NCBI RefSeq assembly: GCF_001412615.1
Contig: NZ_CP013011.1
Location: 840,001 to 872,000 of the forward strand
Origin: Pyrodictium delaneyi
Lineage (GTDB): Archaea > Thermoproteota > Thermoprotei_A > Sulfolobales > Pyrodictiaceae
Length of the DNA stretch: 32,000 nucleotides
Direction: 5' to 3'
Shown: positions 3,598-25,469 of the stretch, piece after piece
How the letters are laid out: each line of letters begins with the position of its first letter
Numbering within the stretch: position 1 is the first letter of the stretch
Translations under genes and position numbers: made by a program
The notes under the pieces: generated by a model
Databases searched by the model: none
Seen by the model: the letters and a program-made list of their open reading frames with translations, nothing else
Told to the model about the DNA's origin: nothing

Positions 3598-3610
3598 GCG
3601 CCCCAGGGGG

Positions 3611-7330: not shown

Positions 7331-7407
7331 CCCGGGGGAGACACCCCGGAGCCAGCACGTATCTCTGCTCCGCGCCTCGGCGAGGAGCCTCAGGGAGCAA
7401 GCTTGTT

Positions 7408-7854: not shown

Positions 7855-7872
7855 CCCTTACCCCCACGGAGC

Positions 7873-9320: not shown

Positions 9321-10445
9321 CTACCTGCGGCTCCGGAGGACTAGTAGGTAGAGCCTCCTGCCCGGCCGGAACCTCTCGCCGAGCGGCTTCGTCTCCGCTT
9401 GTAGGCCGTACTCCCTGGCTAGCCTCGCGAGGGCCTCGTGGACCGGGATGTATGCTCCGCCGAGTATGCTGTCCCCGATGGTGTACCATGCCTGCCACTC
9501 TAGCCTCCCGGCTAGAAGCTCGATGTGCCTCTCCATGGCGTGGAAGTACTGGAGGAGGAAGCGGCGGTAGCCGCGGGCCCTGCTCCCCCTTATCCTAGAG
9601 GCTAGCTCGCGGAGCCAGGGATGCCGTGTCTCCTGTTTCCAGGCCCTGGCGGCTGCCTCGCATGCCGGCATCTGTATGCCTCGGAGCCAGCCGAGGTCCT
9701 CGCTGCCGTGGGCCAGGCCGGCCCAGAGTAGCTCGAGCATGGTGTGTCTCACGTAGTCCAGGTTGTTGGCGAAGGGCGGGCTCGTCAGCAGCCCACAGAT
9801 CCTCCCTGGGAGCCACGCGGTGGAGTCACCCCATACGAGGTCCACTGGGCCGCAGAACCGGTGGCCACGGAGGTCCCCGACGGCCCCGCGGAGGGCCTCC
9901 GCGAAGCCCTGGTACACATCGTGCCTTGTGGCCTCTACTGTTCCCCGGCGGAACCTGGGAGCCGGGCTGCGGCGGAGCAGGCTATACTCGCCTGCCACCC
10001 GGCCGAGGACCGCTAGTAGGAGGGGCCTCCAGTCCCGGGGTGCTTCTTCTACGAGGCGGCGGAGGCGGCCGAGAGCAGTGAGCACCTCCCGTGGGTGGTA
10101 CCGTTCTAGCCTGGGGCTCGGCACTAGGGGCTCCAGCTCCTCCACCGAGCCAAGCCGCTCCAGGGTCCAGTTGAGTACCGCGTCGTAGTCGAGGGGCCTG
10201 GTCTTCGCGGCTACGAGGATGAGGCTCCACGGGTCGGCGTCTACGCCTAGGAAGGAGAAGCACCTCTTCTGCGCCTCGACTGCTACCACGCCGCTCCCCA
10301 CGAACGGGTCTACGATGCCCCGGCAGCCCGCCTCCCTCGCGGCCTGCATGAACTCTTCTACGAGGCTTGGGCTGAGCCCGTGCTCGGTGTACACGCCGAT
10401 ACGGTGAACCGCGATACTGCGCCAAGGGTTAGCCAGAGCAGGCAA
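9321..10445 (-). CDS. DNA methyltransferase (amino-MTase; motif I before motif IV; SPPF variant)
   Basis: SAM-binding motif I in IVDPFVGSGVVAVEA. Catalytic motif IV in LLTSPPFANNLDY. Last gene of a four-gene minus-strand run, 22 nt after the endonuclease-like gene. Confidence 0.75.
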   Translation of the reverse strand: MPALANPWRSIAVHRIGVYTEHGLSPSLVEEFMQAAREAGCRGIVDPFVGSGVVAVEAQKRCFSFLGVDADPWSLILVAAKTRPLDYDAVLNWTLERLGSVEELEPLVPSPRLERYHPREVLTALGRLRRLVEEAPRDWRPLLLAVLGRVAGEYSLLRRSPAPRFRRGTVEATRHDVYQGFAEALRGAVGDLRGHRFCGPVDLVWGDSTAWLPGRICGLLTSPPFANNLDYVRHTMLELLWAGLAHGSEDLGWLRGIQMPACEAAARAWKQETRHPWLRELASRIRGSRARGYRRFLLQYFHAMERHIELLAGRLEWQAWYTIGDSILGGAYIPVHEALARLAREYGLQAETKPLGERFRPGRRLYLLVLRSRR

Positions 10446-10467
10446 CCCGGCCCTCCTCTAAGCGCTT

Positions 10468-10827
10468 CTAGAGCCAGTCGTAGTAGCCGTACCTGACTCT
10501 CCGGATCTTCACGCCTAGCTGCCTGGCGAGCCTCTGTGCTGCGGTAGTTATCCCTGTCTCGTAGGAAAGCACTAGCACTGGTATGGCCCTCGCCCTCCCG
10601 GCCTTCCTGGCTAGTTTCTCTACCTCGCTCCTGGTCACAGGTTTCGAGGGGCGGTGCTTGACCTCGAACACGTACCTCCTCCCCGCGTGCCACGCCACTA
10701 TGTCTATCTCCCCGTAGCTCCTAACGATATTCCTCTCTATGCCATAGTAGCCCTTGGACTCTAGCAGCCTGGCCACGAAGGACTCGTAGCCGCTCCCGCG
10801 CCCCCTCCGGCGGGGCATTCCCGCCAC
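10468..10827 (-). CDS. Small PD-(D/E)xK endonuclease (Mrr-cat-like; Hjc-like fold not excluded)
   Basis: FVARLLESKGYY...GEIDIVAWHAGRRYVFEVKHR...VTRSEVEKLARKA...IPVLVLSYETGITTAAQRLARQLGVKI fits the D-x(12)-ExK core and the overall pattern of Mrr-type restriction endonuclease catalytic domains. Confidence 0.6.
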   Translation of the reverse strand: MAGMPRRRGRGSGYESFVARLLESKGYYGIERNIVRSYGEIDIVAWHAGRRYVFEVKHRPSKPVTRSEVEKLARKAGRARAIPVLVLSYETGITTAAQRLARQLGVKIRRVRYGYYDWL

Positions 10828-10893
10828 CCTAGGGGGAGCTGAAGCACGGACATGCAGCCGTGGCCCTGGGAGATGCTCGCTGAGGGGAGTGTG

Positions 10894-12474
10894 CTAGGCT
10901 AGCCTTACCCGGACGGCGTCTCCCTGCTCGGCTAGCTCCTGCATCTTCTGGGCTGTACGTGATAGCCTACGGCCAGCCCAGCTGCCCCCAGCCCTGGCGA
11001 GTTTGCCTACGGCGCCTATGACGACCATTAGCTTGTGGTGGCGGCTGAGCTGGACGTTCAGCACCTGGGGCTCGTTGTAGTACATTGTCTGGTAGAAGTT
11101 GTCGTCTACCCAGGGGTCGTAGTCGCTGCGCCCGCTATACTCCTTGCCGAGTATCGCCACTACTGCGTCTGCCTCGCCGCCTATAACGGCCTGGACCGTG
11201 GCTGAGAGCGGCGGGTCGAAGTACTGGCCATAGTTGTGCTTGAAGTTGAAGGCTACGTTGGTGACTATGTCGCTGTACGGGGCTATAACCATCGTAGAGG
11301 GCTCCGCGTAGCTCCCCAGCTCGCGGGCAGCCTTGGCGTAGGCCTGTAGTATGAGGGAGACCTCGAGCCCCAGTTTGGTCCTCCTCTTGTCATAGGTGGA
11401 CGCCGTCCTCGAGGCGCTGAACTCGCCTGTCTCGACTACTACGAGGGGCTTCTCCGAGGTGACGGCCTCGTACACCGCGTTGAAGAGCCTGTCCAGCTCG
11501 GTACTCCAGGAGACAGTGCTGCGCAGCATCCGCTCTACCCGGGTCCTCGCGTCCTCGAATAGCTCGCGGAGGCTGCGTAGCCTCCAGTGTGCCGGCTCGT
11601 AGGCGCGTAGCCTGTCGTCGTAGAACCCGTGGCTTATCGGCTGCTCGCTGGGCCCGGGGAGCCTGTACGTGGTGTCGAGCATCACGAAGTTGTCGCGCTC
11701 TAGGCCGTGCTGGCGCACCAGGTGCATGACCTTGTTCATCAGTAGGCTTACCCTCTGGGCGCGGAACGCCTCCGGTACCGTTATCGCCTGCTCCGGGTCG
11801 CCGAGGGCGACGAGCGAGGCCGGGTAGTCGCTGTACCTCATTATAGCGTCGGCTATGCTTATGAAGGCCCGGTAGTAGGGGCTCTTACTAGCCTCGTCCA
11901 CCACCAGGTGTATCCTGCCCGGCTTGCTCGTGAAGCGGCCGCTCACCCTCTGGTACTCCGTCGCGAACACTATCCGGACCACGCTGGGGTCCACGGGCCC
12001 GTAGACCATGCTCTTCAGCGCCGTCTCGCTCGGCGGGCTCTCGTCCACCCCCTTTGCCCGGAACACCTTCTCGCAGTCCCTGACCGTCACCTTGGAGCCG
12101 TAGACGCGGGCACGGTCCACGATGTCCCGGAGCGTGTAGCCCCGTGCTAGGAGCGCGGCAGCAACCCTCTCAAACGCCTGCGCAGCCAGGTGGTTCGTAG
12201 GGGCAACATATATCACCAGCTCATCCAGCATATCGTCAAGCATGTCGGCCATGTGGTCGTGCACGAAGCTCTCGACTACGCTAGTCTTGCCCGTCCCCGG
12301 CGGCCCCTGGACGCCGCCCAGCGGCGCCTTAGCCGAGCCCTTCATCACCCGGACCAGTATGTCCACCGCCTTCTGCTGGCTACTGTTCAGCCGGAGGACG
12401 CGCCTACCAGACCTAGCCTCCTCGGCGCGCCTCCACGCCTCGGCGAGCAGCTCGCAGACATTGTAGCGGGCCAT
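10894..12474 (-). CDS. Superfamily 1B helicase (Upf1/Dna2-like, AAA_11/AAA_12 type)
   Basis: Full motif set present. Q: LNSSQQKAV. I: GPPGTGKT. Ia: VAPTNHLAAQAFERV. II: LVVDEASK. III: LVALGDPEQ. IV: LDTTYRLPGP. V: TVQAVIGGEADAVV. VI: LNVQLSRHHKLMVVIG. Confidence 0.8.
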   Translation of the reverse strand: MARYNVCELLAEAWRRAEEARSGRRVLRLNSSQQKAVDILVRVMKGSAKAPLGGVQGPPGTGKTSVVESFVHDHMADMLDDMLDELVIYVAPTNHLAAQAFERVAAALLARGYTLRDIVDRARVYGSKVTVRDCEKVFRAKGVDESPPSETALKSMVYGPVDPSVVRIVFATEYQRVSGRFTSKPGRIHLVVDEASKSPYYRAFISIADAIMRYSDYPASLVALGDPEQAITVPEAFRAQRVSLLMNKVMHLVRQHGLERDNFVMLDTTYRLPGPSEQPISHGFYDDRLRAYEPAHWRLRSLRELFEDARTRVERMLRSTVSWSTELDRLFNAVYEAVTSEKPLVVVETGEFSASRTASTYDKRRTKLGLEVSLILQAYAKAARELGSYAEPSTMVIAPYSDIVTNVAFNFKHNYGQYFDPPLSATVQAVIGGEADAVVAILGKEYSGRSDYDPWVDDNFYQTMYYNEPQVLNVQLSRHHKLMVVIGAVGKLARAGGSWAGRRLSRTAQKMQELAEQGDAVRVRLA

Positions 12475-12494
12475 CCCCGGCGCACCCCGTCGGG

Positions 12495-14342
12495 CTATAT
12501 CCTCACGCCGCCGAAGAGCAGGGCTAGCATGTCCTCGGCCTCCAGCTGCTCCTCCCTACCCAGCCTCTCCAGCGCCTCAGCACCCCTCCTCACAGTGCCC
12601 ATTTCCGCCGCCGTTACGCCCAGCAGCTCTAGCTGGGTCAGCTCCACGTTCACCTCGAGCGCCACAACGCCGTGGAACACTTCGGGGCTCGTCTCGGCCA
12701 GGTGCTCGAGCAGCGCCGGGTATATCCTGGAGAGCTTGTTGGCAGGCGCGACCCTCACGTAGACCCGGTCGGCCCCCTCGTCGTACTCCACGCTGCTGAC
12801 AGAGCCGTGGAAGCTTGCCCGGAGAAGCGGGTCACGTACATGCCCCTCGTTGAGGAACACCGCCGCCGGCTTGCCCTCCCGCAGGGTGAAGAGGTGCATG
12901 TTCTCCCGCTCCCAGCGGAGCGGCGGCCTCGCCAGCACCAGCTCGCCGCCATCAACCCAGGCCTCGTCGAACAGGTCCACCCTGGAGCCGTCGGGCAGCA
13001 CCCGGTTGACCAGCCTGCCGCGTATCCAGTCCATGCCGCTGCCGTACCTCAGTGCTAGGTCCCTGAAGTGCTTGTACGGGGCGAGCGCGTTCTCGCGGTG
13101 AGCGTATATCGCGAACCGGGCCCTCCAGGACTCGCTGCGGAAGGCCTTGAAGTCCGCGTAGCGGGGGTCCCGGCCGCTACTGAGGTAGTAGACGCAGGCC
13201 TCCCGGACGTTGTCCGGGCACAGCTTGCAGGGCCAGCGGAGCTCCTCGCGCAGCGGGCTACCCATGGGGAGCCGTACCCTGTCCCCGTCCAGCACCAGCT
13301 CGGGGACGAGGCGGAACACCGGCCTCCTCTTACCGCCCCTAGTCACGACGCTGCATATCTCCTCCACGTTGCGCGCATACTTGAGGTGCTCCCGCAGGTC
13401 GGTGACAGAGAGCGTGAGGTGCTCCGCCGCCAGCACCAGCCCCGCCATGAGCCTCCGCAGCTCGTGGTAGTCGCAGCCGCCCCGCCCGCCGATGCACAGC
13501 CGGGGGTGCTTCACGTAGACCCTCGAAGCCCTCCCCGTAGGCGAGGGCCTCACAACACCAGGCACGACGCGGGCGCCCCTGCCGTCCGGCCCCTCCCCGA
13601 GCACGGCGGAGACGTAGCTCTCGAACCCGTCCCCGGCGAGGCCCAGCCGCTCCGCCTCAAGCATAGCGTAGACATACGCCTGCGCTATGTCCACCTTGGT
13701 GACCTGGGCCGTCCTCCCCTCCCCAGGGCTATACGACTTCCACTCGATCACCGCAGCGTACCTGCCCACCGGGTCCTCCACGACAACATCGGCGACCCCC
13801 CAGACGTGGAGACGATAGCTCATAAACTGGTGCTCAGCAAGCACCCGGCTCCTCGCAAGAGCCTCCTCCGCCTCATCGCCCGCCAGAGCACGGAACGCAG
13901 TCTCCACGAACTCCACGCCAGCCCGGGCAAGCTCCTCCGAGGTCCGGATTATCTCGTCCTCCCGCGACTGGTCAATCTTCTCAACATCAAGAACCCCATC
14001 AGACTTAAGCCGGCCAAACGCCTCCTCCACAAGCCCACCGTAGTCGACACTACCCCCGCCCACATGCTCCCGCAGCGCCCGGGGAAACACCAGGGCAAGA
14101 ACCAGGTGGACAGCCTCACCCTTACCAGGCAGCACCGAGTGATAGAACCCACGAACACCCATCGTCTCCCCGAGACGCGCCATAAACACGCACTGCGCAG
14201 CAGCAGTAGCAACACTCCGGGCCTTCACAAGGTGCGCAGTAGCCCCGAGAAGACGGCCACCATCCTCCCCACAGCCAGGCCGACCGGTCGCCTCCACAAA
14301 GAACCTCTCAACAAGCAAGACACGAGGCCCCATATAGCACAC
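12495..14342 (-). CDS. RecB/Cas4-like PD-(D/E)xK nuclease-domain protein with Cys cluster and C-terminal uncharacterised domain
   Basis: HVWGVADVVVED...AAVIEWKSY...VDIAQAYVYAML gives D / ExK / QxxxY in the order typical of RecB-family (Cas4, AddB, Dna2) nucleases. Downstream cysteines: CIGGRGGC and WPCKLCPDNVREAC (CxxCx7C). The GTG at 14342 or the ATG at 14333 may be the start. The helicase gene follows after 20 nt. Confidence 0.6.
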   Translation of the reverse strand: MCYMGPRVLLVERFFVEATGRPGCGEDGGRLLGATAHLVKARSVATAAAQCVFMARLGETMGVRGFYHSVLPGKGEAVHLVLALVFPRALREHVGGGSVDYGGLVEEAFGRLKSDGVLDVEKIDQSREDEIIRTSEELARAGVEFVETAFRALAGDEAEEALARSRVLAEHQFMSYRLHVWGVADVVVEDPVGRYAAVIEWKSYSPGEGRTAQVTKVDIAQAYVYAMLEAERLGLAGDGFESYVSAVLGEGPDGRGARVVPGVVRPSPTGRASRVYVKHPRLCIGGRGGCDYHELRRLMAGLVLAAEHLTLSVTDLREHLKYARNVEEICSVVTRGGKRRPVFRLVPELVLDGDRVRLPMGSPLREELRWPCKLCPDNVREACVYYLSSGRDPRYADFKAFRSESWRARFAIYAHRENALAPYKHFRDLALRYGSGMDWIRGRLVNRVLPDGSRVDLFDEAWVDGGELVLARPPLRWERENMHLFTLREGKPAAVFLNEGHVRDPLLRASFHGSVSSVEYDEGADRVYVRVAPANKLSRIYPALLEHLAETSPEVFHGVVALEVNVELTQLELLGVTAAEMGTVRRGAEALERLGREEQLEAEDMLALLFGGVRI

Positions 14343-14484
14343 GCCGCGCCATAAAACCCAGTATTAAATACAGCGCAACAACACATCTACACAACAAGCC
14401 AAAACACCCCGGCCACCGGCTACCAAGAAACGCAGAACATATATAACAATCAAGACCCACCGCGGGCACAAGGGCAACAACACC
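14343..14484. promoter_or_regulatory. Divergent promoter region between the two arms of the methylase/ATPase/nuclease locus
   Basis: TATA-like attaaata (about 14363-14371) sits about 20-30 nt from the minus-strand start. acatatataac (about 14437-14447) sits about 40 nt upstream of the TTG at 14485. The + strand is extremely C+A-rich. A 10-bp direct repeat GCAACAACAC occurs at 14375-14384 and 14474-14483. Confidence 0.45.
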
Positions 14485-17139
14485 TTGGAGCCGCTCATAG
14501 CACACTACTACCCAACCAAAGAAGCCGGAGAAGAGTCACAAAGAGAACGAGGGACAAGAATACCGCCACCGCTCTTCTATCTCCATCTCTGGTGGGCGCG
14601 CCGCCCCCTAGCAGCAAGTCGCGCCACAGTCGCAGCCCTCGCAGTAGACACCAACAAGCCACCCGACAAGAGGTTCGTAGAAGAGCTCCTCCAAGCCATC
14701 AAGCTCGTGCCAGGGCTCCCCCGGCCAGCGTACAACTACAGCCCGGACCGGGAATGGATAGCCAGGCACAGCCGCGTAAAGGAGGCCACGCTCCTAGACC
14801 CCTTCGCCGGGGGCGGTAGCATCCCCCTCGAAGCCCTCCGCCTAGGATTCAAGAAGGTAGTGGCAGTCGAGTACAACCCCGTAGCCTACATCATACTCAA
14901 AGCAACCCTCGAGTACCCCCTCCGCTACGGCAAGAAGCTGGTAAAAGACGTAGAGTACTGGGCCAAGTGGCTAGTAGAGAACGTCCGCCGCGAGCTAGCC
15001 CCCTACTACCCACCACACCCCAAGGGACGACCCACAAACTACATCTGGGTAAGAGTCTACACATGCCCCGACGGCAAAAAGGTACCAAGCCTCAGCAACC
15101 CCATACTCTCAAAAGACAACAAGATAGCGCTAAAGCTGGAAGGCTTCGACGAGGAAGGCAACCCAATACTAAGGGTAGTAAATGTAAACGATGTAAGTAA
15201 GGCTAAGGAGCAGTACGCCACTATACGCCGCAAGAAGCTACGCTGCCCCACAGCCACCCTCGACTCCAAGGAGCTCCAACGCCAGTACCAAGAAGCCATG
15301 AAGCAGTGGGAGGAAGAAGGACGCTACGGCTACCACCCAGCAGTCCTAGCAGCCGTCAAGCTAGAAGACGGCAGCTACGCAGAGCCCACACAAGAGATGA
15401 TAGAAGCATATCGAAAAGCTGAACAGTACCTTCGAGAGCACTGGGACGAGCTGTTAGCGGAAGACCTCATCCCGGCAGAGCAGATTCCCGAGGGCGAGAA
15501 GACCCGCGAAGTACTACTACGCGGCATAGACAAGTTCTACAAACTCTTCAATGCACGCCAGCTGCTAGTCCATGCGATAGTAGTGAAGTACATTAGAGAA
15601 GCCTACCAAGAAATGCTGAACAAGGGCTACGACGAGGACTATGCAAAGGCGGTTGTAACCTATCTTGCTCTCGGTCACGGTAAGCTTTTAGACTATAGCT
15701 CTACTATGACCATGTGGCATATTAAAGGAGTAATAGGTCACACATTTGCTCGTCATGCGTACACATTTGGTAACGACTTTGCCGAAGGCGACATTATTCC
15801 TGGCAATAAGCAGGGGGATCTACTGAGCTGGGTGTTCTTTAGCAATACGGGTATCGTGAAGGCTTTGGAGCGTATTGTTGGCCTCCTCGAGGGTGCTAGC
15901 GGTGAGGTTGAGGTTGTTCTTGGTGATGCTGCTGATCCTGCTACCTATGCTGGAGTCGATGGTATAGACTTTGTTGTTGCTGATCCGCCGTATTACGATA
16001 ATGTGCAGTATGGTGAGCTTAGTGACTTCTTCTATGTCTGGTTTAAGCGTAGCCTTGGCGAGTTGTATCCGGAGGCGTTTGTCTGGGATACTGTGCCTAA
16101 GGATTCTGAGATTGTTGTTAACCGTGCTCGTGGGAGGGATGGGGCGTGGTTTGAGTCGAGGCTTCGGGCGGTGTTTGAGCTTGTGAGGGAGCAGGGTGCT
16201 GGGAGGCTTGCTGTGATGTATGCTCACCGGAGCAGTGAGGGCCTCTACGCGATGTTTGGGGCGCTTCTTGGGGCTGGCTGGAAGCCTGTTGGCGTGTGGG
16301 GCGTTGCTGCGGAGCAGCCTCGTAGCCAGCATATTGTGGGCAAGGCTGCTGCCCGGAGCATGCTTGTCATAGGCGCTGTGCCCCGTAGTGGCGGCTCTGG
16401 GTGTTTCTGGGATGCGCGGCTGCAGCGCCGTGTCGAAGAGGCCGTTGAGGCCGCTGTGAGGGAGACGCTAGGGCTCGGGCTTGGCCTTGTCGACGCGGTC
16501 TTGGCTGGTGTTGGTGCCGCGTTTCGTGTTGCTGGGGAGTGCTGGCCTCTCCAGAGGCTCGAGGGCGGCGTGGTCGGTGTCAGGGAGGTGGTTGACCTTG
16601 CTAGCCGTGTTGCGAGCCGTGCTGTGACCCGGGAGGTGCTGCGGGCTGAGATCGACCCATTGTCGACCATGTACTTCCTCGCCAGGGTCGTGTACGGCGA
16701 GCCGGAGTACGACGAGCTTAGGCGGCTGGGCTATGCTGCTGGGCTGAGCCACGAGGTGTTCATAGAGAGGTTCACCAAGGGATCGAGGACGAGCCGTGGC
16801 CGGAAGGTGTACCCGCTGAAGAGGCTCGACGAGATAGACGCTGTGCTGAGGCCGGGCTCGCTGGTGGAGGCTCTGGCTGTCGCCGTGCGGAGGTTCCTCG
16901 TGGCTGGCGTGGAGGAGGCTTTGGAGGCGCTGCGTGAGGCCGGCTATGGGCTCGACACGGCTGTGTGCCGGTACGTGGAGGCGCTTATGGCTGACAGCGA
17001 GGGCGGCGAGAAGAAGGCGCTTCAGGGTATCTACGCGGCCTGTGTGCAGCGTGGCCTGGCCGGCGGCCGCGGCGGCAGAGGCCCGGGCGAGGGCTCCGGC
17101 GGCCAGCGCACGCTCGTCGAGTTCCTGGGCAGAAGGTAG
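14485..17139 (+). CDS. DUF1156-type DNA methyltransferase (DPPY, probable N6-adenine)
   Basis: N-terminal LHLWWARRPLAASRA is the DUF1156 signature as I recall it. Motif I: LLDPFAGGGSIPLEA. Motif IV: FVVADPPYYDNVQYGELSDFFYVW. TTG start. Confidence 0.8.
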   Translation: MEPLIAHYYPTKEAGEESQRERGTRIPPPLFYLHLWWARRPLAASRATVAALAVDTNKPPDKRFVEELLQAIKLVPGLPRPAYNYSPDREWIARHSRVKEATLLDPFAGGGSIPLEALRLGFKKVVAVEYNPVAYIILKATLEYPLRYGKKLVKDVEYWAKWLVENVRRELAPYYPPHPKGRPTNYIWVRVYTCPDGKKVPSLSNPILSKDNKIALKLEGFDEEGNPILRVVNVNDVSKAKEQYATIRRKKLRCPTATLDSKELQRQYQEAMKQWEEEGRYGYHPAVLAAVKLEDGSYAEPTQEMIEAYRKAEQYLREHWDELLAEDLIPAEQIPEGEKTREVLLRGIDKFYKLFNARQLLVHAIVVKYIREAYQEMLNKGYDEDYAKAVVTYLALGHGKLLDYSSTMTMWHIKGVIGHTFARHAYTFGNDFAEGDIIPGNKQGDLLSWVFFSNTGIVKALERIVGLLEGASGEVEVVLGDAADPATYAGVDGIDFVVADPPYYDNVQYGELSDFFYVWFKRSLGELYPEAFVWDTVPKDSEIVVNRARGRDGAWFESRLRAVFELVREQGAGRLAVMYAHRSSEGLYAMFGALLGAGWKPVGVWGVAAEQPRSQHIVGKAAARSMLVIGAVPRSGGSGCFWDARLQRRVEEAVEAAVRETLGLGLGLVDAVLAGVGAAFRVAGECWPLQRLEGGVVGVREVVDLASRVASRAVTREVLRAEIDPLSTMYFLARVVYGEPEYDELRRLGYAAGLSHEVFIERFTKGSRTSRGRKVYPLKRLDEIDAVLRPGSLVEALAVAVRRFLVAGVEEALEALREAGYGLDTAVCRYVEALMADSEGGEKKALQGIYAACVQRGLAGGRGGRGPGEGSGGQRTLVEFLGRR

Positions 17140-17201
17140 CGCCCCGTGTACCGCCTAGCCTTGTGCGTGTTGTGGCCTGGTGCTAGTCGGGGTGGCTTGT
17201 C

Positions 17202-20200
17202 TTGGCTGGTGGGCGTGCTGGCTGGGTCCCGTTTGAGGAGATCCGGGAGGGGCATATCACGGATAGTAGCTTCGTGGTGCAGCTCTGGTATGTGCACCGT
17301 GGCTGCCCGGGTGGCGGCTGGAGCTGCGTTGATGAGCGCTACCGTGACCCGGTGAAGTTCTTTGACCGTACCTACTTCTCTGAGGGGCTGCGGCAGGTCC
17401 TCGGCAACGTGGTGCGGAGGCTGGTCTACGGGGGCGAGGGTAACGCTGTTGTGCTCCTGCACACCGGGTTTGGCGGGGGTAAGTCGCACACGCTTCTCTC
17501 GATATACCACGTTGCCCGGGGGCTCGGGGAGGCGGCTAGGAGCCGCCGGCTCCGGGAGTTCCTGCACGAGGTGGGCGTCGAGCCGGGGGAGGCGGGCTTC
17601 CGCTCGGCGGTAGCGGTGTTCGACGGGGCTGCTGTGGACCCGGTGCGGCTACGCGATGTCTATGGGGCGCCTAACGCCTGGGTGTTTATCCTCGAGGAGC
17701 TTGTCCGCTCGGCAGGCGCCAGCGAGCTGGCTAGACGTGTGGCTCGTTACCGGAGGGCTGCGCCGGGCAGCGAGGAGATTGGCGAGATTCTTGCCCGGCT
17801 CGAGGGGGCCGGGGTCAGGCCGGTTATACTCATCGACGAAATAGCGATGTATCTCCGGAACCTGGAGGTGCGTGGCGACGAGGAGGCTCGGCGCGAGGCC
17901 GAGGGCCTTAGGATATTCCTCCACAACCTCGCCGTGGCAGTGTCGAACTCCAGGTACGCTGTGCTGGCTATCGCTACACCGCAGCAGTACGAGGGGGAGT
18001 CCCAGCAGGTGATAGCCACTCTCTCGGACGTGAAGAGGGTAGCCATGCCGACCTCCATTGTGGGCCGGGGCGATGCTGCTGCTGTGCTCCGGGCTGCTCT
18101 CCTAGAGGAGGTGGACGAGGCCGCTGCCGCCGCTGTGGCTGAGAAGTATGCGAGGCTCTACGAGGGGGAGCGGGACCGGTTCCCCGTGGACGCCTCTATG
18201 CCGGAGTACCGGCGGCGGATGGCCTCGAGCTACCCGTTCCACCCGTTCCTGGTGGACGTGCTCTATGGGGAGCTTGCGGAGGTCCCTGGGTTCCAGGGTA
18301 CGCGCGACATACTGCGTATCGTGGCGTGGGCGCTGTACTGGAGGAGCCGGGGCGGCGACACCTACGATATGCTTGTCCTAGGCGACCTGGACGCCACCAG
18401 GAGGGAGATACTAGACGAGCTCCTCACCAGGAACGAGCTCCTGAAGAAGCTCCGCAATGCCGTGTCCTACGACGTGGAGGTCATAGAGGAGATTGACGAG
18501 AAGCTGGCCCGCGAGGGACTGCCACGCGTCGCCTCGCTCACCTACTCGGCCGTACTAGTAAGGAGCGCTGCTGGCAAGCCCTCCCGGCCCGAGGAGGTAG
18601 CGCTGGGCGCCGTCACACCGGTCCGCGGCGTCACTGTGCAGCTCGTCCAGCACATGCTGGAGAGCGAGCTCCTAAGGAAGACCGCGCACCTCCACCGCAT
18701 CGACCGGGGCGGCGAGACACTGTACATGGTCAAGTCCCGCGCCAACATCTACATGCTGGTCCACCGTATAGCGGGCGAGATACTGGCTAGGAGCAGGGAC
18801 CGTGTGCTAGAGAGGCTCCGCAGGGAGATAGGGAAGATAGCGAAGCCCACGGCTGAGTGCAGGATAGTTGTCTGGCCCCGGCACCCCGGCCAGGTGGAGG
18901 ACACGCCGAGGATTAAGCTGGTGCTCCTGGACCCAGAGGAGCCAGCCGTAGCCGCGGGCGGGGGCAGGCTCCTCGGCCTCCTAGAGAGGTTCACCATGTA
19001 CAGCCAGGCAGGCGCCGGAGCCGCCTACCGGAAGCACCGGAACACCGTGCTCTACCTGGTCCCGGATATGAGGCTCTACCAGCAGCTACTCCAGAGCATA
19101 GCCAGGCTCATGGCTGTCGAGAGACTGATGCAGCCAGAGCAGAAGCAGTACTACGGCCTAGAGAAGGCCGACGAGGACGAGCTGAACAGGATGAGGAACG
19201 AGCTGCTGGACGAGATCGCCTCTGACACTGCTGCACTCTACGCGACGCTCTACTACCCGCTCGAAGCCCGGCCCGACGGCAGCGTGGTCTTCGACAAAGC
19301 CGAGCTAGACCCCTCCAAGATCCGGGGCAGCGGCCTCTGGCAGACAGTGCGGGAGAAGCTACGCGAGATAGGCAAACTAGCCACGGACGTGCCCGAGGAG
19401 TACGTGCTAACCGAGATACTAGCCAAGAGGTATAACGCGCTACGCCGCCCACTAGGCGTCGACGAGATAGCCTCAGCGTTCACCGAGGACCCCAGCAGCG
19501 TACTACTCATAGACCCGGAGAAGGTTGTACGGGAGAAGCTAGCCAGCCTCGTAGAGCGCGGCAGACTGGTAGCCCTCACCCCCAGCGGCCCCGTCTGCAT
19601 GAAGAGGCCCGCGCTAGCCAGCAAGGACGTACGCTTCGCGCCCTGCAGCTCCCCAGAGGCCCGCCAGAGCTGCGTAGTGGAGACCGGGGATGAGGGCCTC
19701 GAGTGCCGCCCCAAGCCCCCGCAGGACTGCAGAAGCCCCGTATGGGACACCGAGACCAGAACCTGGAAGTGCACCGAGCAAGCCGAGCCAGGAGAGGAGA
19801 CAGGAGAAACAGAGGAGACCGGCCGAGAGATAGGCAGAGCCGTAGCCGAGCCCCCGAGGCAGCCGGCGAGGCCGTGGACGCTGAGCTATCGGGGCATCAA
19901 CCCGTACCAGCTCCGCGAGGAGCTGCTGAAGACAGACCGGCTAGAGGAGCCCGTGGAGGCCATTAGCCTCCGGCTAGTACTGAGCGGCGGGGTGGACCAG
20001 CAGCTCGTCTCCGGGCTAAAGATATTACTACAGGCCGTGAAGGACATGGCGTCCCGGGGGAGCGGCTACTCCCTAAACGCCCGGGCCGTGGTGAGGTCAG
20101 AGAGCAGGGTATCAAGCGTGACCATAGACGCTGAGACTGCTAGCATAGAGCAGCTCTACAGGATCCTAGACGTAGCTAGGAGCCTGGGAGGCATAGCCGA

Positions 20201-20345
20201 GGTGCGGCTCGACATAGACCTAAGGAGGCGGGAGGGCAAGCCCCTACTACTCCGCGACGTAGCTGACGCGCTGAACCGCAGGATGCTGGCCAAGTACCCC
20301 GGCCTACAGCTAGAGGACGTGTACATAGAGCTCTCACGGGGCTAG
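17202..20345 (+). CDS. DUF499-type large P-loop ATPase (BrxC/PglY-like)
   Basis: N-terminal W-VPFEEI...YRDPVKFFDRTYFSEGLRQVL, followed by Walker A in LLHTGFGGGKSHTLLSIYH and Walker B in VILIDEIAMYL. This order and wording match the DUF499 family. 1047 aa, 62 nt downstream of the methylase gene. Confidence 0.75.
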   Translation: MAGGRAGWVPFEEIREGHITDSSFVVQLWYVHRGCPGGGWSCVDERYRDPVKFFDRTYFSEGLRQVLGNVVRRLVYGGEGNAVVLLHTGFGGGKSHTLLSIYHVARGLGEAARSRRLREFLHEVGVEPGEAGFRSAVAVFDGAAVDPVRLRDVYGAPNAWVFILEELVRSAGASELARRVARYRRAAPGSEEIGEILARLEGAGVRPVILIDEIAMYLRNLEVRGDEEARREAEGLRIFLHNLAVAVSNSRYAVLAIATPQQYEGESQQVIATLSDVKRVAMPTSIVGRGDAAAVLRAALLEEVDEAAAAAVAEKYARLYEGERDRFPVDASMPEYRRRMASSYPFHPFLVDVLYGELAEVPGFQGTRDILRIVAWALYWRSRGGDTYDMLVLGDLDATRREILDELLTRNELLKKLRNAVSYDVEVIEEIDEKLAREGLPRVASLTYSAVLVRSAAGKPSRPEEVALGAVTPVRGVTVQLVQHMLESELLRKTAHLHRIDRGGETLYMVKSRANIYMLVHRIAGEILARSRDRVLERLRREIGKIAKPTAECRIVVWPRHPGQVEDTPRIKLVLLDPEEPAVAAGGGRLLGLLERFTMYSQAGAGAAYRKHRNTVLYLVPDMRLYQQLLQSIARLMAVERLMQPEQKQYYGLEKADEDELNRMRNELLDEIASDTAALYATLYYPLEARPDGSVVFDKAELDPSKIRGSGLWQTVREKLREIGKLATDVPEEYVLTEILAKRYNALRRPLGVDEIASAFTEDPSSVLLIDPEKVVREKLASLVERGRLVALTPSGPVCMKRPALASKDVRFAPCSSPEARQSCVVETGDEGLECRPKPPQDCRSPVWDTETRTWKCTEQAEPGEETGETEETGREIGRAVAEPPRQPARPWTLSYRGINPYQLREELLKTDRLEEPVEAISLRLVLSGGVDQQLVSGLKILLQAVKDMASRGSGYSLNARAVVRSESRVSSVTIDAETASIEQLYRILDVARSLGGIAEVRLDIDLRRREGKPLLLRDVADALNRRMLAKYPGLQLEDVYIELSRG

Positions 20346-20935
20346 ACAAACGCCTCCCAGCACACTCCTATTTTCCTCGAGACGAGGGTCACGAGCCAGG
20401 ACCACTCCCCCGGGGGCTTGAGGGGGAGCGCCTCCTCGCCGCCCGCCTCCTCGACGAGCCGGGCGAGCCCCGGGAGCACGAGCACCACGCGCGTGCGCTG
20501 CGGCAGGCTACGGATAGTCCAGAAGACTAGCAGCCGCCACCACCGGTCACCCAGGTCAGCACCGTCGAGCAGCAGCACCACCGTGCCAGCACCGGGGCAG
20601 CCACCCTTGCACAGCAGCCCAGCAGCCTCGGCCACACCCAGCTCCAGGTAGCCGCCGGGGTCGCCACCCGCCTCGTCCCGGGCATCCTCGAGCGAGCCAC
20701 AAACGAGCACACTACGCGGCCGCGAACCAGGCCGGAGACACATCACAAGATCCCGCACATCACCCACACTACTGTCCACGCCCCGGCCACGCCGAGGCCC
20801 CCCAGGCCTAGCTGGCTTGGCAAGCCCTACAGCCCTCAGGTATTCGTCTAGCGTTCGCTGAGCAGCCACCTGCCAGCCCCACAACGCAGCTTCCGAATGA
20901 GGCGTGAACACCCGCCTCTGCGATAGTAACACCAT
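20342..20935 (-). CDS. Hypothetical protein (197 aa)
   Basis: Its stop codon overlaps the ATPase stop by 4 nt (convergent). GC-rich with a G-first-position codon bias and no competing ORF. No motif recognised. Confidence 0.45.
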   Translation of the reverse strand: MVLLSQRRVFTPHSEAALWGWQVAAQRTLDEYLRAVGLAKPARPGGPRRGRGVDSSVGDVRDLVMCLRPGSRPRSVLVCGSLEDARDEAGGDPGGYLELGVAEAAGLLCKGGCPGAGTVVLLLDGADLGDRWWRLLVFWTIRSLPQRTRVVLVLPGLARLVEEAGGEEALPLKPPGEWSWLVTLVSRKIGVCWEAFV

Positions 20936-21126
20936 GCACGTCTAGAGACACAACTCCTGAACAGAATAGCATCATAGAGATAATAGAACCCGAACCTAGA
21001 ATGGGCAAAGTGTGTAGTCTCCCTAAGGAGGAAGGGCATCTGCAGTGTATTTCTACCCTATCATGCTCAGTCAAATAAGCACACTAATCTTTATAGATCT
21101 AAGGGCGTCTAGAGTATCATGATCTC

Positions 21127-22368
21127 CTAGTAGCCTTTAACCACGTATATGTATGGCTTAATGGATGGCCCTGTGCTGTGTCCTGCGTGGCTGTAGATTC
21201 CTCTTCTAGTGAAGGTGTCCGGCTTGAACATTATCGGCTTTCTGACTCTGAACTCCCTAGCTACTTCCGCTATTGTCTTGGCTACTTCTACGACTAGGCT
21301 TACTGCTAGGAAGCTGGGCACATAGACTATCACTGGCTGCTCCTCACTATTCTCCACTATTCCGACCGTCTTGGCTGCGTAGTCTAGCTTCTTCTCCCTG
21401 AGCCTTCGAATGACCTCTGCTAGGAATCTCCCGCGGAGCCTTCTCTTCACGAATACCATCCATTTGCCTGAGGTGCTAGTTATGTCGAGCAGCTGTTTGC
21501 CGTTGGGGCCTACTTCGAGTCTATCGGGTCTAAGCCATGTTAGTGCGTGGCTAGCCTCTTTGCTGAGCACCTCTATGCCGGCCTTGCCCAGCTTATGTTT
21601 CAAGGCTTGTAGGACTCGTTGCTGGTTGTCTGCTATTAGTAGCTCGGCTAGAAGCATTTCTAGCGGCTCGTCTCTATCGGCTCCTAATGCCCGGCGGAGG
21701 AACTCTACGGATTCTCTCAGGGCTTCCTCCTCGAGTCTTCTAGTGTTCGTTGGGCTAAGGTAGTGCAGCCATTTGTTGTCTAGACTGTAGCCCTCGGAAG
21801 CCATTGTGCTGAGTATGCTCTCTATTGTTCTTCTCGTCTCCACGTCTAGGCCTGGCAGTTCCTCCAGCACTATCCTCCAGTCATCGATGCTGCTTAGCTC
21901 TCTCCATACCTTGAATGCTTTCTCTACGAGTGTTTTGACGGCCTCAATGTCTAGACCATTAACAGCAGCTAGCTGCTCTATCGCCTCCATCCTTCTGTGG
22001 ATTACTAGTGCATAGCCCTGGTGCTTAGCGAGATGACATCTTTTACAGAGAAGCCGGATTCCAGCTAGCACTGCTATTCCTTTACCGTCTTCCAGGTAGT
22101 ACCTCCAGTCCTCATCGACATCGTAGGCAGGGGACGCACCACATGTGCCACAAGCGCCGCCTCTGGGGATACCCTACCACCACGTATGGAGCCTCTCTAG
22201 GGCCTCTGCACAGCGGCCAGTACCATTACAGAAGGCATCATCGATCAGCCAGGGGTCTGCTCGGGCGAGCTTCGCTAGACTAATGCCCCATAAGGGGCTA
22301 GGCACAAGCCTTGGACACAACTTGCCGAGGGTTCTACAGACCTCATGATATGACTCGACGAGCGGCAT
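21127..22368 (-). pseudogene. HNH/zinc-finger-like nuclease-family gene interrupted by one in-frame TAG
   Basis: ORFs 22174..22368 and 21127..22071 share one frame, and the 34 codons between them are open. Read-through gives ...ALERLHTWW*GIPRGGACGTCGASPAYDVDEDWRYYLEDGKGIAVLAGIRLLCKRCHLAKHQGY... The CxxC...(D/H)ExW...CxxCHxxKH unit therefore straddles the stop and the nominal GTG start. Confidence 0.6.
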
Positions 22369-22516
22369 AGACTTCTACCTTACCATATCAGTCAACTTGC
22401 ACAAATACAACTATATTACTGTACCTATATTTAATCCTGTATTTATGCAGCCGTAGTGAGAGCATGCGTGGCGAATTATTCATCATAGCTAACTAATTTT
22501 GACAAATCCTTAAATA

Positions 22517-23539
22517 TTAATGGCAAAGAATTCGCTCAATCGATTTATCCGGAGCCGGGGCTGCAGACTTTTGCCCTATTATATTTTCGAGACTATTGAG
22601 CAAGTACGTAAAGCTAGTTATTATTACCGTCGCAACTACTTCTTCACGTCTTCTAGCCTTCACAACTAAGCAATTATTGCCTATGACTTTTTCGCTTGCA
22701 CCTGCTAGTATTAGTACGCCGTATCTCGCATTAGCTAGGTACATGTAGCTATATACTTGTTTTCTATAGCTCAGAATACTTTCCCGACTAAACTTTGTCC
22801 TAAGCTTGACCTCAGCAATAACTCTATACCTTGTTTGGTCCGGTTTATTAACTAGAGTTATAAGAGCATCCGGTCTTAAGGGCTTAATTTTCCCTAGGGA
22901 AAACTCTTCTCTGACACCCCATTCATGCATAAGTGTTATAGTGTTATCCACACATTCAGTTCTAATCCTGAATTTTAGAGCATGCCCGCTATAGAAGGGA
23001 TAAACTTCGCATCCTTGATCAGCAGACGCATGGCCAACCGTCATCAGCAAGTATAGTGTGAGTATAGCGAGGAACTGTACAATATAACCCATGAGTTTAT
23101 CACTGGCAAGTTTAATATAATAAGCTTTTTTAAAAATTAAGTCATTTAATATATCAGTAGATAATTTTGCTTTTAACAATAGCTTCGATGCAAGAACATC
23201 GTTGACAAGGTATGACATATCGTATATATCCTCATCGAAAGCATAATCGAAAGAAAGCCGCATACGTGGGACATATCTACTATTGTACACAAAATTTTTT
23301 ATGAAAGTTTCACATAACCTAGTATAGCTGCTGTTATCTAGACAGAAATCTATTATCTTTTTTCGAATACTCCTATTAGTGAACAGTATATTGAACTCTC
23401 GCGAAACTAAGTTATGTAGCCTGTTAACTCCTCTAATACTACTTTTTTCTAGCTGTTCTAAGAGCCATGAAAATCGTAGAATATATTTTATGTAAGTATT
23501 TTCAATATTGCTAGCTTCTTCATAGGTCACAAGAATCAC
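22517..23539 (-). CDS. McrC-like PD-(D/E)xK nuclease subunit
   Basis: C-terminal LRPDALITLVN...YRVIAEVKLR is a PD...ExK core. The gene starts 6 nt after the McrB-like gene ends. Very AT-rich. Confidence 0.6.
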   Translation of the reverse strand: MILVTYEEASNIENTYIKYILRFSWLLEQLEKSSIRGVNRLHNLVSREFNILFTNRSIRKKIIDFCLDNSSYTRLCETFIKNFVYNSRYVPRMRLSFDYAFDEDIYDMSYLVNDVLASKLLLKAKLSTDILNDLIFKKAYYIKLASDKLMGYIVQFLAILTLYLLMTVGHASADQGCEVYPFYSGHALKFRIRTECVDNTITLMHEWGVREEFSLGKIKPLRPDALITLVNKPDQTRYRVIAEVKLRTKFSRESILSYRKQVYSYMYLANARYGVLILAGASEKVIGNNCLVVKARRREEVVATVIITSFTYLLNSLENIIGQKSAAPAPDKSIERILCH

Positions 23540-23545
23540 CTTATA

Positions 23546-25342
23546 TTATTGCGGCATCCTAATACAGCTGCTACAGATTGTCTTTATGCCGTCCCTTAAG
23601 CTATGTTGAGTAAAGCCTAGTAGCTCTGATAGTAGATTACATTTGTCATTATCATCGATGAAGCTCGCCCTGTATATATTCATTATATCTCTTACAGCCC
23701 AAATACCTACTTCGAAAATATCGCAGTTTATGCCTATACTAGCGAGCTTTCTACATATACACTTATTATGCCCCTCTTTAAATCTCATTATGTTAAGAAG
23801 AGTTCCAAGCGATATACCGTTTACCCTTATAATAGGGAAGCGGAGTTGAAATGCAATACTAAAGGGAAATAGCAAGCTAGTTTCGACATCGTTAGCGCTT
23901 GATACAATTATAAATGGCTGTTCTATTGTATATCCTCCTTCTTTGGCCAAAGTACTAATTAGGTGTTTTAAGTATACATAGTCATTAAAGACAGCTACAT
24001 TATCTTCTGCAAGTATCTTTAAGCGAGGTGTTACAACAATCCGTCTCTCGAAAGATAGCATGCTTAACAGTTCGCCACCAACTTTATCTATTTCGGTTCT
24101 ATTCACCTCGTCAAGGACAAGTACTGGCAATATGCCTTGCGCGGCGTAGTTCAGTGCCCTCGCAATACAGCCAGGCAAGTACACAAGTCTACCATTGTTA
24201 TCGCTAACAACTGTACCCACCAATTCTGCTCTACCAGTATCTATACTTATGGGACAATATTCGACAACTACTTTTACAGCATTCTTATCTATATTGTTAA
24301 CAATTCTTTCAAGTAGTCTAGGTAATATTTCAACTGATAAGTATGTTTTTCCTGCCCGTGGTGGTCCAACGATGAATACTCTACGACTAACCAAGACATG
24401 CTTCAACATTTCCCGCAGTATGTGCGTGTAAATGGTTTTGCATTCCTCTCTTAATTCACCTATATTAATATTTCTACAAATATCTTCAACAGTATTTACT
24501 ATAAATTCATCTATTTCGTCATCATTAATCTTCGCGAGCTTCAAAAGCAGATTTATAATATAATTTAAATTATTAACTACTTCATTTGACTTATCTATTT
24601 CAGCATTTTCATTACTAGAATACGTTATGGTTCTATTTATTAGTGGCCAATCTAGCATTATATTATTAAATAAATTGTTTAGTTCTTCTTTGACAATCTT
24701 CCCTATAATGTCCTTAAGCTCGCTCTCCATAATACTTCTAACATAGATCTGAAAATCGCTTCTAATACTTTCTAAGTTTTTCTCAAAAATATTAACTTTC
24801 TCCTTTATTTCTTTAACTTCTTCAATACAAAGTCTAGGATTAATTAAACGAGCGGCCTCACCAAGCTGTCGCGAGACGTCTTCATTTTTACTTTTACTTT
24901 GATTCTTTTCCTCTTGCGTACGGAAAGACAACTGAGTATGCTGTAAATCCAAAACCGTTTTTTCTTTATGATCTTGCCAGTTATTTTGACTTGCTCGAAC
25001 AGCCGAAGATAATAGCTGAGGGGGTTGTGAGGAACTTTTAGTCTTAGTCTTTTTTGACTGCATAATAGCGCTTAAAGACGCTTTTGTTACTTTCTTAGCA
25101 TGATCAAATTTCTTACATGGTCTAGGTATTAATCTTCTACACCTATATTCTCTCGTGAGTTTATTTATAGACTTCCATTCATCCAATATATAGATGTCAG
25201 TATTACTCTCTAGTATTACATAGCATGATAACGATTTTTCACGCTTAGTACAGTAGAAGTAAACATGAAATCTATTAGCGTTAACGTATGATACCTTCGG
25301 ATTCTCGCATTGATAGCATCGTTGCACATCCATGGCTCTCAC
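23546..25342 (-). CDS. McrB-like AAA+ (AAA_5) NTPase with a novel N-terminal region
   Basis: Walker A in FIVGPPRAGKTYL. Walker B and signature in LVLDEVNRTEIDKVGGELLSMLS, compared with McrB DEINRANxSKxFGELxxLxE. The N-terminus holds a Cys-containing module (CYQC...C...C), then a long Lys/Ser/Gln/Glu-rich, probably coiled-coil linker. Confidence 0.65.
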   Translation of the reverse strand: MRAMDVQRCYQCENPKVSYVNANRFHVYFYCTKREKSLSCYVILESNTDIYILDEWKSINKLTREYRCRRLIPRPCKKFDHAKKVTKASLSAIMQSKKTKTKSSSQPPQLLSSAVRASQNNWQDHKEKTVLDLQHTQLSFRTQEEKNQSKSKNEDVSRQLGEAARLINPRLCIEEVKEIKEKVNIFEKNLESIRSDFQIYVRSIMESELKDIIGKIVKEELNNLFNNIMLDWPLINRTITYSSNENAEIDKSNEVVNNLNYIINLLLKLAKINDDEIDEFIVNTVEDICRNINIGELREECKTIYTHILREMLKHVLVSRRVFIVGPPRAGKTYLSVEILPRLLERIVNNIDKNAVKVVVEYCPISIDTGRAELVGTVVSDNNGRLVYLPGCIARALNYAAQGILPVLVLDEVNRTEIDKVGGELLSMLSFERRIVVTPRLKILAEDNVAVFNDYVYLKHLISTLAKEGGYTIEQPFIIVSSANDVETSLLFPFSIAFQLRFPIIRVNGISLGTLLNIMRFKEGHNKCICRKLASIGINCDIFEVGIWAVRDIMNIYRASFIDDNDKCNLLSELLGFTQHSLRDGIKTICSSCIRMPQ

Positions 25343-25469
25343 GTAAAGTGGTGATTTTCAAGTAAAATATATAATTTTTGAGCCTTTAATGCAGTTCACA
25401 GTCATTATGTACTACCTTTGGTTTAAAATTACTCCCGACAATAGGAACGAGAGAATTGGAGATGTGGCT
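25343..25469 (-). promoter_or_regulatory. AT-rich promoter region of the McrBC-like operon
   Basis: aaaatatataattttt at about 25364-25380 is centred about 25-35 nt upstream of the ATG at 25342 on the coding strand. Confidence 0.4.

Follow-up and report, generated by a model that had tools for sequence, protein, structure and literature searches.

We analyzed a 32,000-nucleotide stretch of the Pyrodictium delaneyi genome (assembly GCF_001412615.1, contig NZ_CP013011.1, positions 840,001–872,000; ∼63% GC), hereafter the window, in which a DUF1156-type DNA methyltransferase and a DUF499 ATPase are encoded divergently from a RecB/Cas4-family nuclease, a superfamily 1B (SF1B) helicase, and a second, small methyltransferase. 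We consider it likely that this locus is a restriction-modification (RM)-like module of the BR/Hma type, with a split Dna2-like helicase-nuclease standing in for the Snf2-nuclease effector and the small methyltransferase as an addition. The unit would span about 11 kb (∼9321–20345) as two divergent operons, with the plus strand providing a sensing-modifying core (DUF1156 methyltransferase and DUF499 ATPase) and the minus strand the effector side (nuclease, SF1B helicase, and small methyltransferase). A first-pass annotation of positions 14485–20345 had described the methyltransferase and the ATPase as a minimal pair lacking its usual partners. This description does not hold, because the nuclease, the helicase, and the second methyltransferase diverge from the adjacent intergenic region and are conserved in informative relatives; the earlier coordinates cut the system in half. 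The module comprises the following features.

9321–10445, minus strand: second, small amino-methyltransferase, 374 aa (PADLOC MTase_II, family alignment)
10894–12474, minus strand: SF1B (Upf1/Dna2-like) helicase, 526 aa (Pfam, profile comparison with the PDB, AlphaFold model and Foldseek)
12495–14318, minus strand: RecB/Cas4-family PD-(D/E)XK nuclease, 607 aa from a TTG at 14318 (Pfam PDDEXK_1, alignment)
14319–14484, no strand: divergent intergenic region shared by both operons, with TATA-like elements in both directions (read from the sequence)
14485–17139, plus strand: DUF1156-type alpha-class N6-adenine DNA methyltransferase, HmaB/MtsC homolog, 884 aa (Pfam DUF1156, PADLOC HmaB, alignment)
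17202–20345, plus strand: DUF499 ORC/Cdc6-clade AAA+ ATPase, HmaC/MtsA homolog, 1047 aa (Pfam DUF499, PADLOC HmaC, AlphaFold model)

The coordinates of the two plus-strand open reading frames (ORFs) agree with the NCBI gene calls of P. delaneyi, a hyperthermophilic crenarchaeon; the methylase is Pyrde_0858 at 100% identity, and the window proteins are residue-for-residue the same as those of contig NCQP01000001.1 (assembly GCA_002194565.1). The motifs on which the first-pass annotation had based its identification of the pair were all located: WWARRPL (residues 36–42, nt 14590–14610), motif I DPFAGGGS (residues 105–112, nt 14797–14820), and motif IV DPPY (residues 500–503, nt 15982–15993) in the methylase, and YRDPVKFFDRTYFSEGL (residues 47–63, nt 17340–17390) and FGGGKSH (residues 90–96, nt 17469–17489; Walker A GFGGGKSH) in the ATPase. 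Both Pfam matches exceed the gathering cut-offs (DUF1156, 1.1e-12, 48.3 bits vs 24; DUF499, 6.7e-25, 87.5 bits vs 23), and the best PADLOC matches are HmaB for the methylase (1.8e-53) and HmaC for the ATPase (9.4e-57). The NCBIfam models DUF1156_antiphage and DUF499_antiphage match at 147.6 and 77.7 bits, respectively, far under their equivalog cut-offs of 1000 and 1200.

In the methylase, an N-terminal DUF1156 helical domain is followed by motif I, a target recognition domain (TRD) insert of ∼390 aa, and motif IV. Its catalytic residues are invariant in an alignment of 19 diverse homologs. GC content falls to 0.47–0.54 in the TRD insert (15085–15985) compared with 0.64–0.70 at the 3′ end of the gene, and residues 401–450 share 54% identity with a relative that is 90% identical overall, marking a candidate hypervariable patch that may determine specificity or may be a recombination tract.

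The ATPase falls in a compact clade of archaeal proteins (42–95% identity), separated by a gap from bacterial DUF499 proteins at ∼27%, and its Walker A and Walker B (VILIDE, residues 208–213) residues are invariant across the clade alignment. The best PDB match of its AlphaFold model (predicted local distance difference test, pLDDT, 79) is A. pernix ORC2, which is weak for the full-length model. Its C-terminus is a variable ferredoxin/RRM-like region, and the domains past residues ∼860–890 do not align in Aeropyrum/Acidilobaceae relatives; a BrxC-like architecture beyond the AAA+ domain is a claim taken from the literature and not from structure comparison. Because no BrxC/PglY match (Pfam, PADLOC) and no PglZ match was obtained, the ATPase is HmaC/MtsA-like and not canonical BREX, in keeping with the affinity to DUF1156-DUF499(-Snf2-DUF3780) defense systems proposed in the first-pass annotation.

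On the opposite strand, the nuclease ORF is open to 14342, which gives a length of 607–615 aa depending on the start and an intergenic gap to the methylase of 142–166 bp. This gap contains a plus-strand TATA-like element (catatataac, ∼14439–14448) and a minus-strand one (tttaatact, the reverse complement of 14361–14369), which would act as promoters of the two operons. Pfam PDDEXK_1 matches the nuclease at 3.2e-6 and matches its homologs too. In an alignment of 11 homologs, the RecB/Cas4 core (GVAD at 185, IEWK at 202, and QxxxY at 221–225) is invariant, as are six cysteines (C24, C51, C330, and C372-x2-C375-x7-C383). Iron-staple nucleases bind a 4Fe-4S cluster through four cysteines, a single one preceding the core and a CxxCx(n)C triad following it; we take the pattern seen here to resemble that of the Fe-S nucleases Cas4, AddB, and Dna2, and the protein is accordingly described as iron-staple-like and putatively Fe-S binding. 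The C-terminal ∼200 aa are conserved and have no family assignment. The nuclease family is tiny (67 clusters at E ≤ 1e-3 among 1.84 billion representatives), and homologs were absent from every record in the plasmid and phage collections searched.

The helicase carries Walker A (GPPGTGKT), Walker B (VVDEAS), and motif III (GDPEQ); motifs V and VI are intact too, and none of the SF1 motifs varies across 43 homologs. Pfam assigns AAA_11, AAA_12, and AAA_19, and a family profile compared with the PDB matches Upf1, NAM7, Sen1, and IGHMBP2. The AlphaFold model (pLDDT 90.8) has two RecA-like domains in an Upf1/Dna2-like fold; its top Foldseek match is the Dna2 nuclease-helicase 5eaw (E 1.1e-14), followed by Ighmbp2 and then Upf1. 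PDB sequence searches with all four main proteins, and with the nuclease family profile, returned no match. Since the gene order, nuclease then SF1B helicase, is the domain order of Dna2, the two genes are by order and fold a split Dna2-like helicase-nuclease. The small methyltransferase has motif I DPFVGSG (DPFxGSG) and motif IV TSPPF, both invariant across 16 homologs, and is matched by PADLOC MTase_II (down to 3.3e-10); it could be N4-cytosine or N6-adenine specific. With invariant catalytic motifs in all five proteins, the enzymes look active.

Several other labels were considered for the effector genes. Weak PADLOC matches of the helicase and nuclease to Mokosh, Nhi, AbiO, and Druantia were set aside, since they extend over generic SF1 or PD-(D/E)XK motifs alone and none of the genes that accompany those systems is present. 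A housekeeping Dna2 was likewise rejected, given the small family size, the patchy spread, and the travel with methyltransferases.

Described relatives of the module use a different effector. Bell et al. 2020 (PMC7641849) drew attention to a DUF1156(COG1743)-DUF499-Snf2-nuclease operon, the name Hma was given by the PADLOC authors (PMC8565338), and the HmaA Snf2-PD-(D/E)XK nickase protects against phage T4 (PMC11232893). The type 2 system MANTIS (Gao_RL) has been dissected biochemically and structurally: loading of its methylase onto 6-bp asymmetric sites is the task of the DUF499 ATPase, hemimethylation is enhanced by a small co-factor, methylation needs the ATPase, methylase, and co-factor but not the nuclease, and restriction requires the helicase-nuclease and both ATPase activities (bioRxiv 10.64898/2026.09.23.753747). 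The family is thus no longer mechanistically uncharacterized, as the first-pass annotation had believed. The helicase in all BR systems is stated to be Swi2/Snf2 (PMC12839542), and the parts of the cited Hma, BR, and MANTIS papers that were available describe no effector made of an SF1B helicase and a separate RecB-type nuclease. The PMC12839542 supplements available as text mention neither Pyrodictium, Aeropyrum, or Hyperthermus nor an SF1 variant, and its data set may not have included these genomes. Because the published classifications (Hma; BR types 1–3; MANTIS) cover only Swi2/Snf2 helicases, we read the locus as an undescribed archaeal variant within a known kind of defense system.

Wherever a related locus is informative (about 20 cases), DUF1156/DUF499 comes with the nuclease-helicase pair. 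A profile of the ATPase clade identified seven genome loci (Pyrodictiaceae, Hyperthermus, Desulfurococcales, Acidilobaceae, Aeropyrum, and Thermoproteota metagenome-assembled genomes, MAGs); the nuclease adjoins the DUF1156/DUF499 pair in all seven, the SF1 helicase is present in all six whose contig reaches that far (48–95% identity), and the small methylase in four of the seven. The same nuclease-helicase stands beside the pair in P. occultum and on a 79-kb Aeropyrum-type contig, and on the short contig L013 the pair adjoins a truncated nuclease. Distant helicase homologs (29–41% identity) have DUF1156 and DUF499 nearby in Staphylothermus hellenicus and in locus L015 (GCA_053996195.1), and the same search reaches DUF1156 in Stygiolobus caldivivus; the fourth such locus gives no information on the pair, its contig stopping 118 bp upstream of the nuclease. 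Ferroglobus placidus (Archaeoglobi), reached by a methylase-seeded search, holds all five components. A nuclease-seeded metagenome search, in which components were called with hidden Markov models built for this analysis, returned 13 loci, with DUF1156 adjacent in seven of the nine that have usable flanks (L021–L024, L026, L027, and L030). Across several Thermoproteota orders and the Archaeoglobi the linkage persists at 30–40% identity, and in most related loci the small methyltransferase stands beside the nuclease-helicase pair.

Gene order within the module is flexible, and its insertion sites are independent. In P. occultum the small methyltransferase comes after the ATPase, Ferroglobus and L024 have the ATPase in convergent orientation, and nuclease, helicase, DUF1156, and DUF499 all lie on one strand in L014 and L015. 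In Aeropyrum/Acidilobaceae, the five-gene module interrupts the rpoA2-L7Ae-NusA-S12/S7-EF1alpha-S10 cluster between S12 and S7, and in P. occultum it interrupts an ABC-transporter operon. In a neighbor-joining tree of the methylases (a distance method with a midpoint root, hence too weak to carry a conclusion), those linked to SF1 helicases fall into two separate clades; this hints that the triad of nuclease, helicase, and small methyltransferase is tied to two methylase lineages and would suggest repeated recruitment.

The main rival explanation is that two independent systems travel together, namely an RM-like triad and a separate DUF1156/DUF499 module whose effector is absent or elsewhere. 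We judge this improbable, but it is kept alive by locus L025 (3879–14575), where the triad occurs without DUF1156/DUF499, next to a 1030-aa Eco57I-type methylase and an Lhr-like DEAD helicase. The triad thus does not always come with the pair, and in L025 it may be an autonomous, undescribed RM-like cassette; it owns a methyltransferase with intact motifs, so the formal parts of an RM system are complete. The pair, in turn, has another partner on a Bathyarchaeota-like contig (L019, 5104–12811), where divergent DUF499 and DUF1156 genes occur with a BrxL-type Lon-like ATPase (BrxL_N + BrxL_ATPase, 1e-105) and neither Snf2 nor SF1/nuclease was found; this pairing may be another effector variant of the family. 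The surroundings are defense islands with toxin-antitoxin genes, prokaryotic Argonautes (pAgo), OLD-like ATPases, and Csx1, and adjacency in such islands can arise by co-selection of independent systems.

Five further points weigh against a single module. The operons are linked by genome comparison; the small methyltransferase is missing from the available sequence of L005 and L009; a Snf2 helicase may be encoded in trans elsewhere in the 2.0-Mb genome, the search having covered the window and the flanks of relatives; MANTIS requires its co-factor MtsB (DUF3780), for which no counterpart is recognizable here; and, while co-divergence of the four large proteins, with pairwise-identity matrices over 11 loci that correlate at r = 0.85–0.98, favors one module, shared organismal phylogeny would also produce this correlation. 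What disfavors two independent systems is the breadth and flexibility of the linkage: adjacency is maintained across ∼20 loci despite 30–40% identity, shuffled gene order, and differing insertion sites, the module enters housekeeping operons as one block, and the pair would have no effector at any of these loci.

Within the window, no Snf2-like ORF was detected among ORFs of at least 180 aa (Pfam and PADLOC), no Snf2, HmaA, ResIII, or Helicase_C protein was found in the whole 32 kb, and DUF3780 and PglZ were not found (Pfam, PADLOC); none of the ORFs tested gave a PLD/HKD or DUF3780 match (Pfam, PADLOC, NCBIfam). Snf2, DUF3780, and PglZ are likewise missing from the flanks of the variant loci, as far as these were available (up to 10 kb). 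The first-pass annotation was thus right that an SF2 helicase and DUF3780 are absent from the window. It had also named a canonical helicase or PglZ partner just outside its coordinates as something that would refute it; in spirit this is the case, since a helicase-nuclease does adjoin them, but it is not canonical and no PglZ accompanies it. By comparison, a Snf2-NOV_C helicase adjoins the pair in the canonical relative Thermococcus zilligii (methylase 34% identical), whereas the Upf1/Dna2-like SF1B enzyme is the only helicase partner found here, in place of the Swi2/Snf2 helicase (HmaA) of BR systems. The core of BR/Hma systems is present, with a DUF499 ORC/Cdc6-clade ATPase that has intact Walker motifs and an adjacent DUF1156 methylase with a TRD insert. 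The standalone DUF3780 protein (MtsB) and HKD-SF2 helicase-nuclease of BR type 2 (MANTIS, Gao_RL) and the PglZ of BR type 3/BREX are lacking; for the latter group, a marginal PglX/PglXI motif-IV match (1.8e-6 over 30 residues) was the only one obtained.

The absence of Snf2, DUF3780, and PglZ from the window, together with the capacity of MANTIS to methylate without its nuclease, would also suit an effector-less DUF1156/DUF499 pair that serves as an ATP-gated epigenetic or regulatory methylase or relies on a helicase encoded elsewhere. We find this quite unlikely, as the divergent nuclease-helicase operon is present in every clade member with flanking sequence.

The zinc ribbon of the methylase bears on whether the locus is intact. 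A TRD insert tipped by a 4C Zn finger has been described as the norm (PMC12839542), and the first-pass annotation had suggested that it is degenerate here. The alignments bear this out.

15058–15261, plus strand: TRD apex with the two knuckles of a degenerate zinc ribbon, YTCPDGKK (15058–15081) and LRCPTATL (15238–15261) (alignments)

In alignments of 19 and 115 homologs, these segments align with both knuckles of a 4-Cys zinc finger. The window methylase retains only C194 and C254, two of the four cysteines, and so does not carry the 4-Cys finger of DUF499-centered BR/Hma systems; these two, the first cysteine of each knuckle, are invariant in all 19 aligned sequences. The knuckle patterns change with distance from the window protein.

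Distant homologs (≤35% identity; Thermococcus, Fervidibacter, Methanopyrus): C-x2-4-C ... C-x2-C
Clade at 35–39% identity: C-x2-C ... C-x3-4-H
Ferroglobus-type: C-x-C ... C-x3-H
Clade at 47–51% identity: C-x2-H ... C-x3-H
Window clade (≥59% identity): C-P-[D/E/N]-G ... C-x4, second ligand lost

Because distant homologs carry C-x2-4-C ... C-x2-C at these positions, the cysteine positions are homologous to the zinc ribbon. As read from the alignments, ligand loss is clade-wide and stepwise and no private lesion of the window protein, and it is not a sign of decay, since the catalytic motifs of the methylase stay invariant. That the locus is what decay has left of a canonical Hma/BR type-1 system, with its Snf2 helicase-nuclease lost and its zinc ribbon under relaxed selection, is therefore very improbable: the two lost ligands and the NCBIfam scores far under the equivalog cut-offs would fit, but both ORFs are full-length, the catalytic and Walker motifs are invariant over a clade of 42–95% identity, the ligand loss is shared and stepwise, and no remains of a Snf2 pseudogene were observed. 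The series (4C to C3H/C2H2 to 2C) provides a tidy case of a structural zinc site being dispensed with.

For a single module with an exchanged effector, we lean, by a modest degree, toward a mechanism in which the AAA+ loader/methylase core licenses an SF1B and iron-staple nuclease effector in place of Snf2 and the two methyltransferases protect self. By analogy with MANTIS (BR type 2), the methyltransferase would be brought to short asymmetric sites by the ATPase acting as its loader. Host sites would become methylated, marking self DNA, while complexes bound to sites on unmodified, foreign DNA would recruit or license the helicase-nuclease, as the MANTIS analogy again suggests; the two operons would then be coupled both physically and functionally. 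The helicase-nuclease would unwind and degrade the invader. Since SF1B motors move along single-stranded DNA 5′–3′ and Snf2 motors along double-stranded DNA, degradation would probably start at a nick or an end, as Dna2/AddAB-like resection, and cleavage is likely to be unlike that of the Snf2-driven relatives. The second strand or a second motif may be the target of the small methyltransferase, or this enzyme may be the dedicated antidote to the nuclease-helicase pair. A literature search for methylome data of P. delaneyi returned nothing usable.

Three additional features lie within or next to the module.

19596–19772, plus strand: Cys-rich small beta module inside the ATPase, residues 799–857 (clade alignment, short strands in the AlphaFold model)
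10468–10827, minus strand: YraN/Mrr_cat-like endonuclease-fold protein, 119 aa, between helicase and small methyltransferase (NCBIfam YraN, Pfam)
20342–20935, minus strand: convergent 197-aa ORF with a 4-nt overlap with the ATPase stop codon (no family match)

The Cys-rich module is a short beta-rich linker ahead of the C-terminal ferredoxin/RRM-like domains of the ATPase. Its six cysteines (C799, C815, C824, C835, C843, and C857) are invariant across the archaeal clade and could form a metal-binding or disulfide module; the sections of the BR literature examined do not mention it. The 119-aa protein matches NCBIfam YraN at 2.9e-10 and carries Mrr_cat in the existing Pfam annotation. Its homologs occur only in Pyrodictiaceae loci (L003 and L004), and it is therefore probably a lineage-specific accessory. 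The 197-aa ORF has zero matches in Pfam, PADLOC, and NCBIfam and is kept only in the two closest relatives (L003 and L004, 78–81% identity); that it is part of the system is doubtful.

The window from ∼3.6 kb to 29 kb looks like a defense island, and no tRNA gene marking an integration site was found in the window. Upstream of the module, a dense toxin-antitoxin cluster (3600–8150) includes a TumE toxin (4044–4439) with an overlapping upstream partner (4402–4707), a MazE-like and PIN pair (5890–6545), and two AF2212-like and PIN pairs (6598–6915 with 7106–7330; 7873–8115 with 7408–7854). On the other side, a low-GC island (21000–29300; 35–50% GC vs ∼63% around it) has almost no family matches. 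It encodes a 598-aa AAA_5 (McrB/dynein-type) ATPase (23546–25342) followed by a 340-aa protein (22517–23539), along with ORFs of 314, 404, 462, and 308 aa, and looks like a recently acquired element, possibly an McrBC-like defense system.

Related loci also have distinctive neighbors. In the closest Pyrodictiaceae MAG (L022, 12507–16784), genes for a 936-aa Piwi-domain (prokaryotic Argonaute-like) protein and for an OLD/AbiEii-like ABC ATPase come after the module. In the Aeropyrum/Acidilobaceae MAGs (L011/L012, 2552–13216; L006 and L008 equivalent), a BFN-domain nuclease gene is inserted with the module, and the S12/S7 ribosomal protein cluster is an unusual site for a defense island. In Stygiolobus caldivivus (L017, 6041–18786), two PAPS-reductase-family genes flank the nuclease-helicase and the DUF1156 gene lies 5.4 kb away; these neighbors hint that, in Sulfolobales, the genes may be connected with DNA modification of a sulfur or deazaguanine type.

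Conserved across hyperthermophilic archaea, the variant falls outside the current classification, and we expect such loci to be overlooked or wrongly scored by rule-based finders whose rules demand HmaA or MtsD. Effector swapping is common in defense systems, and the family would amount to a natural experiment in effector exchange on one AAA+/methylase core, which is partnered by a double-stranded DNA translocase-nuclease in types 1 and 2, by PglZ in type 3, apparently by BrxL in L019, and by a single-stranded DNA helicase-nuclease here. If this is true, the sensor-modifier core would be effector-agnostic and able to drive resection-type restriction. Questions raised by this reading include whether site orientation has an effect with an SF1B motor, what substitutes for MtsB or the Tudor domain, and what role the second methylase plays. 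The proteins are also attractive for structural work, since the source organisms grow near 100 °C.

Hma/Type-1 BR systems (PMC8565338; PMC12839542) share with the Pyrodictium locus a DUF1156 alpha-class N6-methyltransferase, a DUF499 ORC/Cdc6-like AAA+ ATPase, an RM-like logic with a PD-(D/E)XK nuclease and helicase effector, and the absence of DUF3780 and PglZ. Their effector is a Swi2/Snf2 (SF2) helicase with a fused restriction endonuclease and an N-terminal Tudor domain, whereas that of Pyrodictium consists of a separate RecB/Cas4-type nuclease and a separate SF1B helicase on the opposite strand. Pyrodictium further differs in its extra small methyltransferase, in a methylase that has lost half its zinc ligands, and in an ATPase without a HEPN domain. 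MANTIS/Gao_RL (Type-2 BR) has a homologous ATPase (MtsA) and methylase (MtsC), but the Pyrodictium locus lacks the DUF3780 co-factor (MtsB) and the HKD/PLD-SF2 effector (MtsD), and its proteins score under the NCBIfam equivalog cut-offs. BR type 3 and BREX have a related methyltransferase architecture (TRD insert with Zn finger) and a BrxC-like ATPase; their PglZ, iSTAND/BrxB, and BrxHII helicase are absent here, and the Pyrodictium ATPase is DUF499-type, not BrxC/PglY. Eukaryotic and archaeal Dna2 acts in replication or repair, while the Pyrodictium version is spread over two polypeptides, lies among methyltransferases in a defense module, and includes a nuclease without significant sequence match to solved structures; the two nonetheless share the order of nuclease then SF1B helicase and RecB-family motifs, the Cys pattern of the nuclease resembles the Fe-S iron staple of Dna2, AddB, and Cas4, and Dna2 is the best fold match of the helicase model. 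The staphylococcal nuclease-helicase defense protein Nhi is also comparable.

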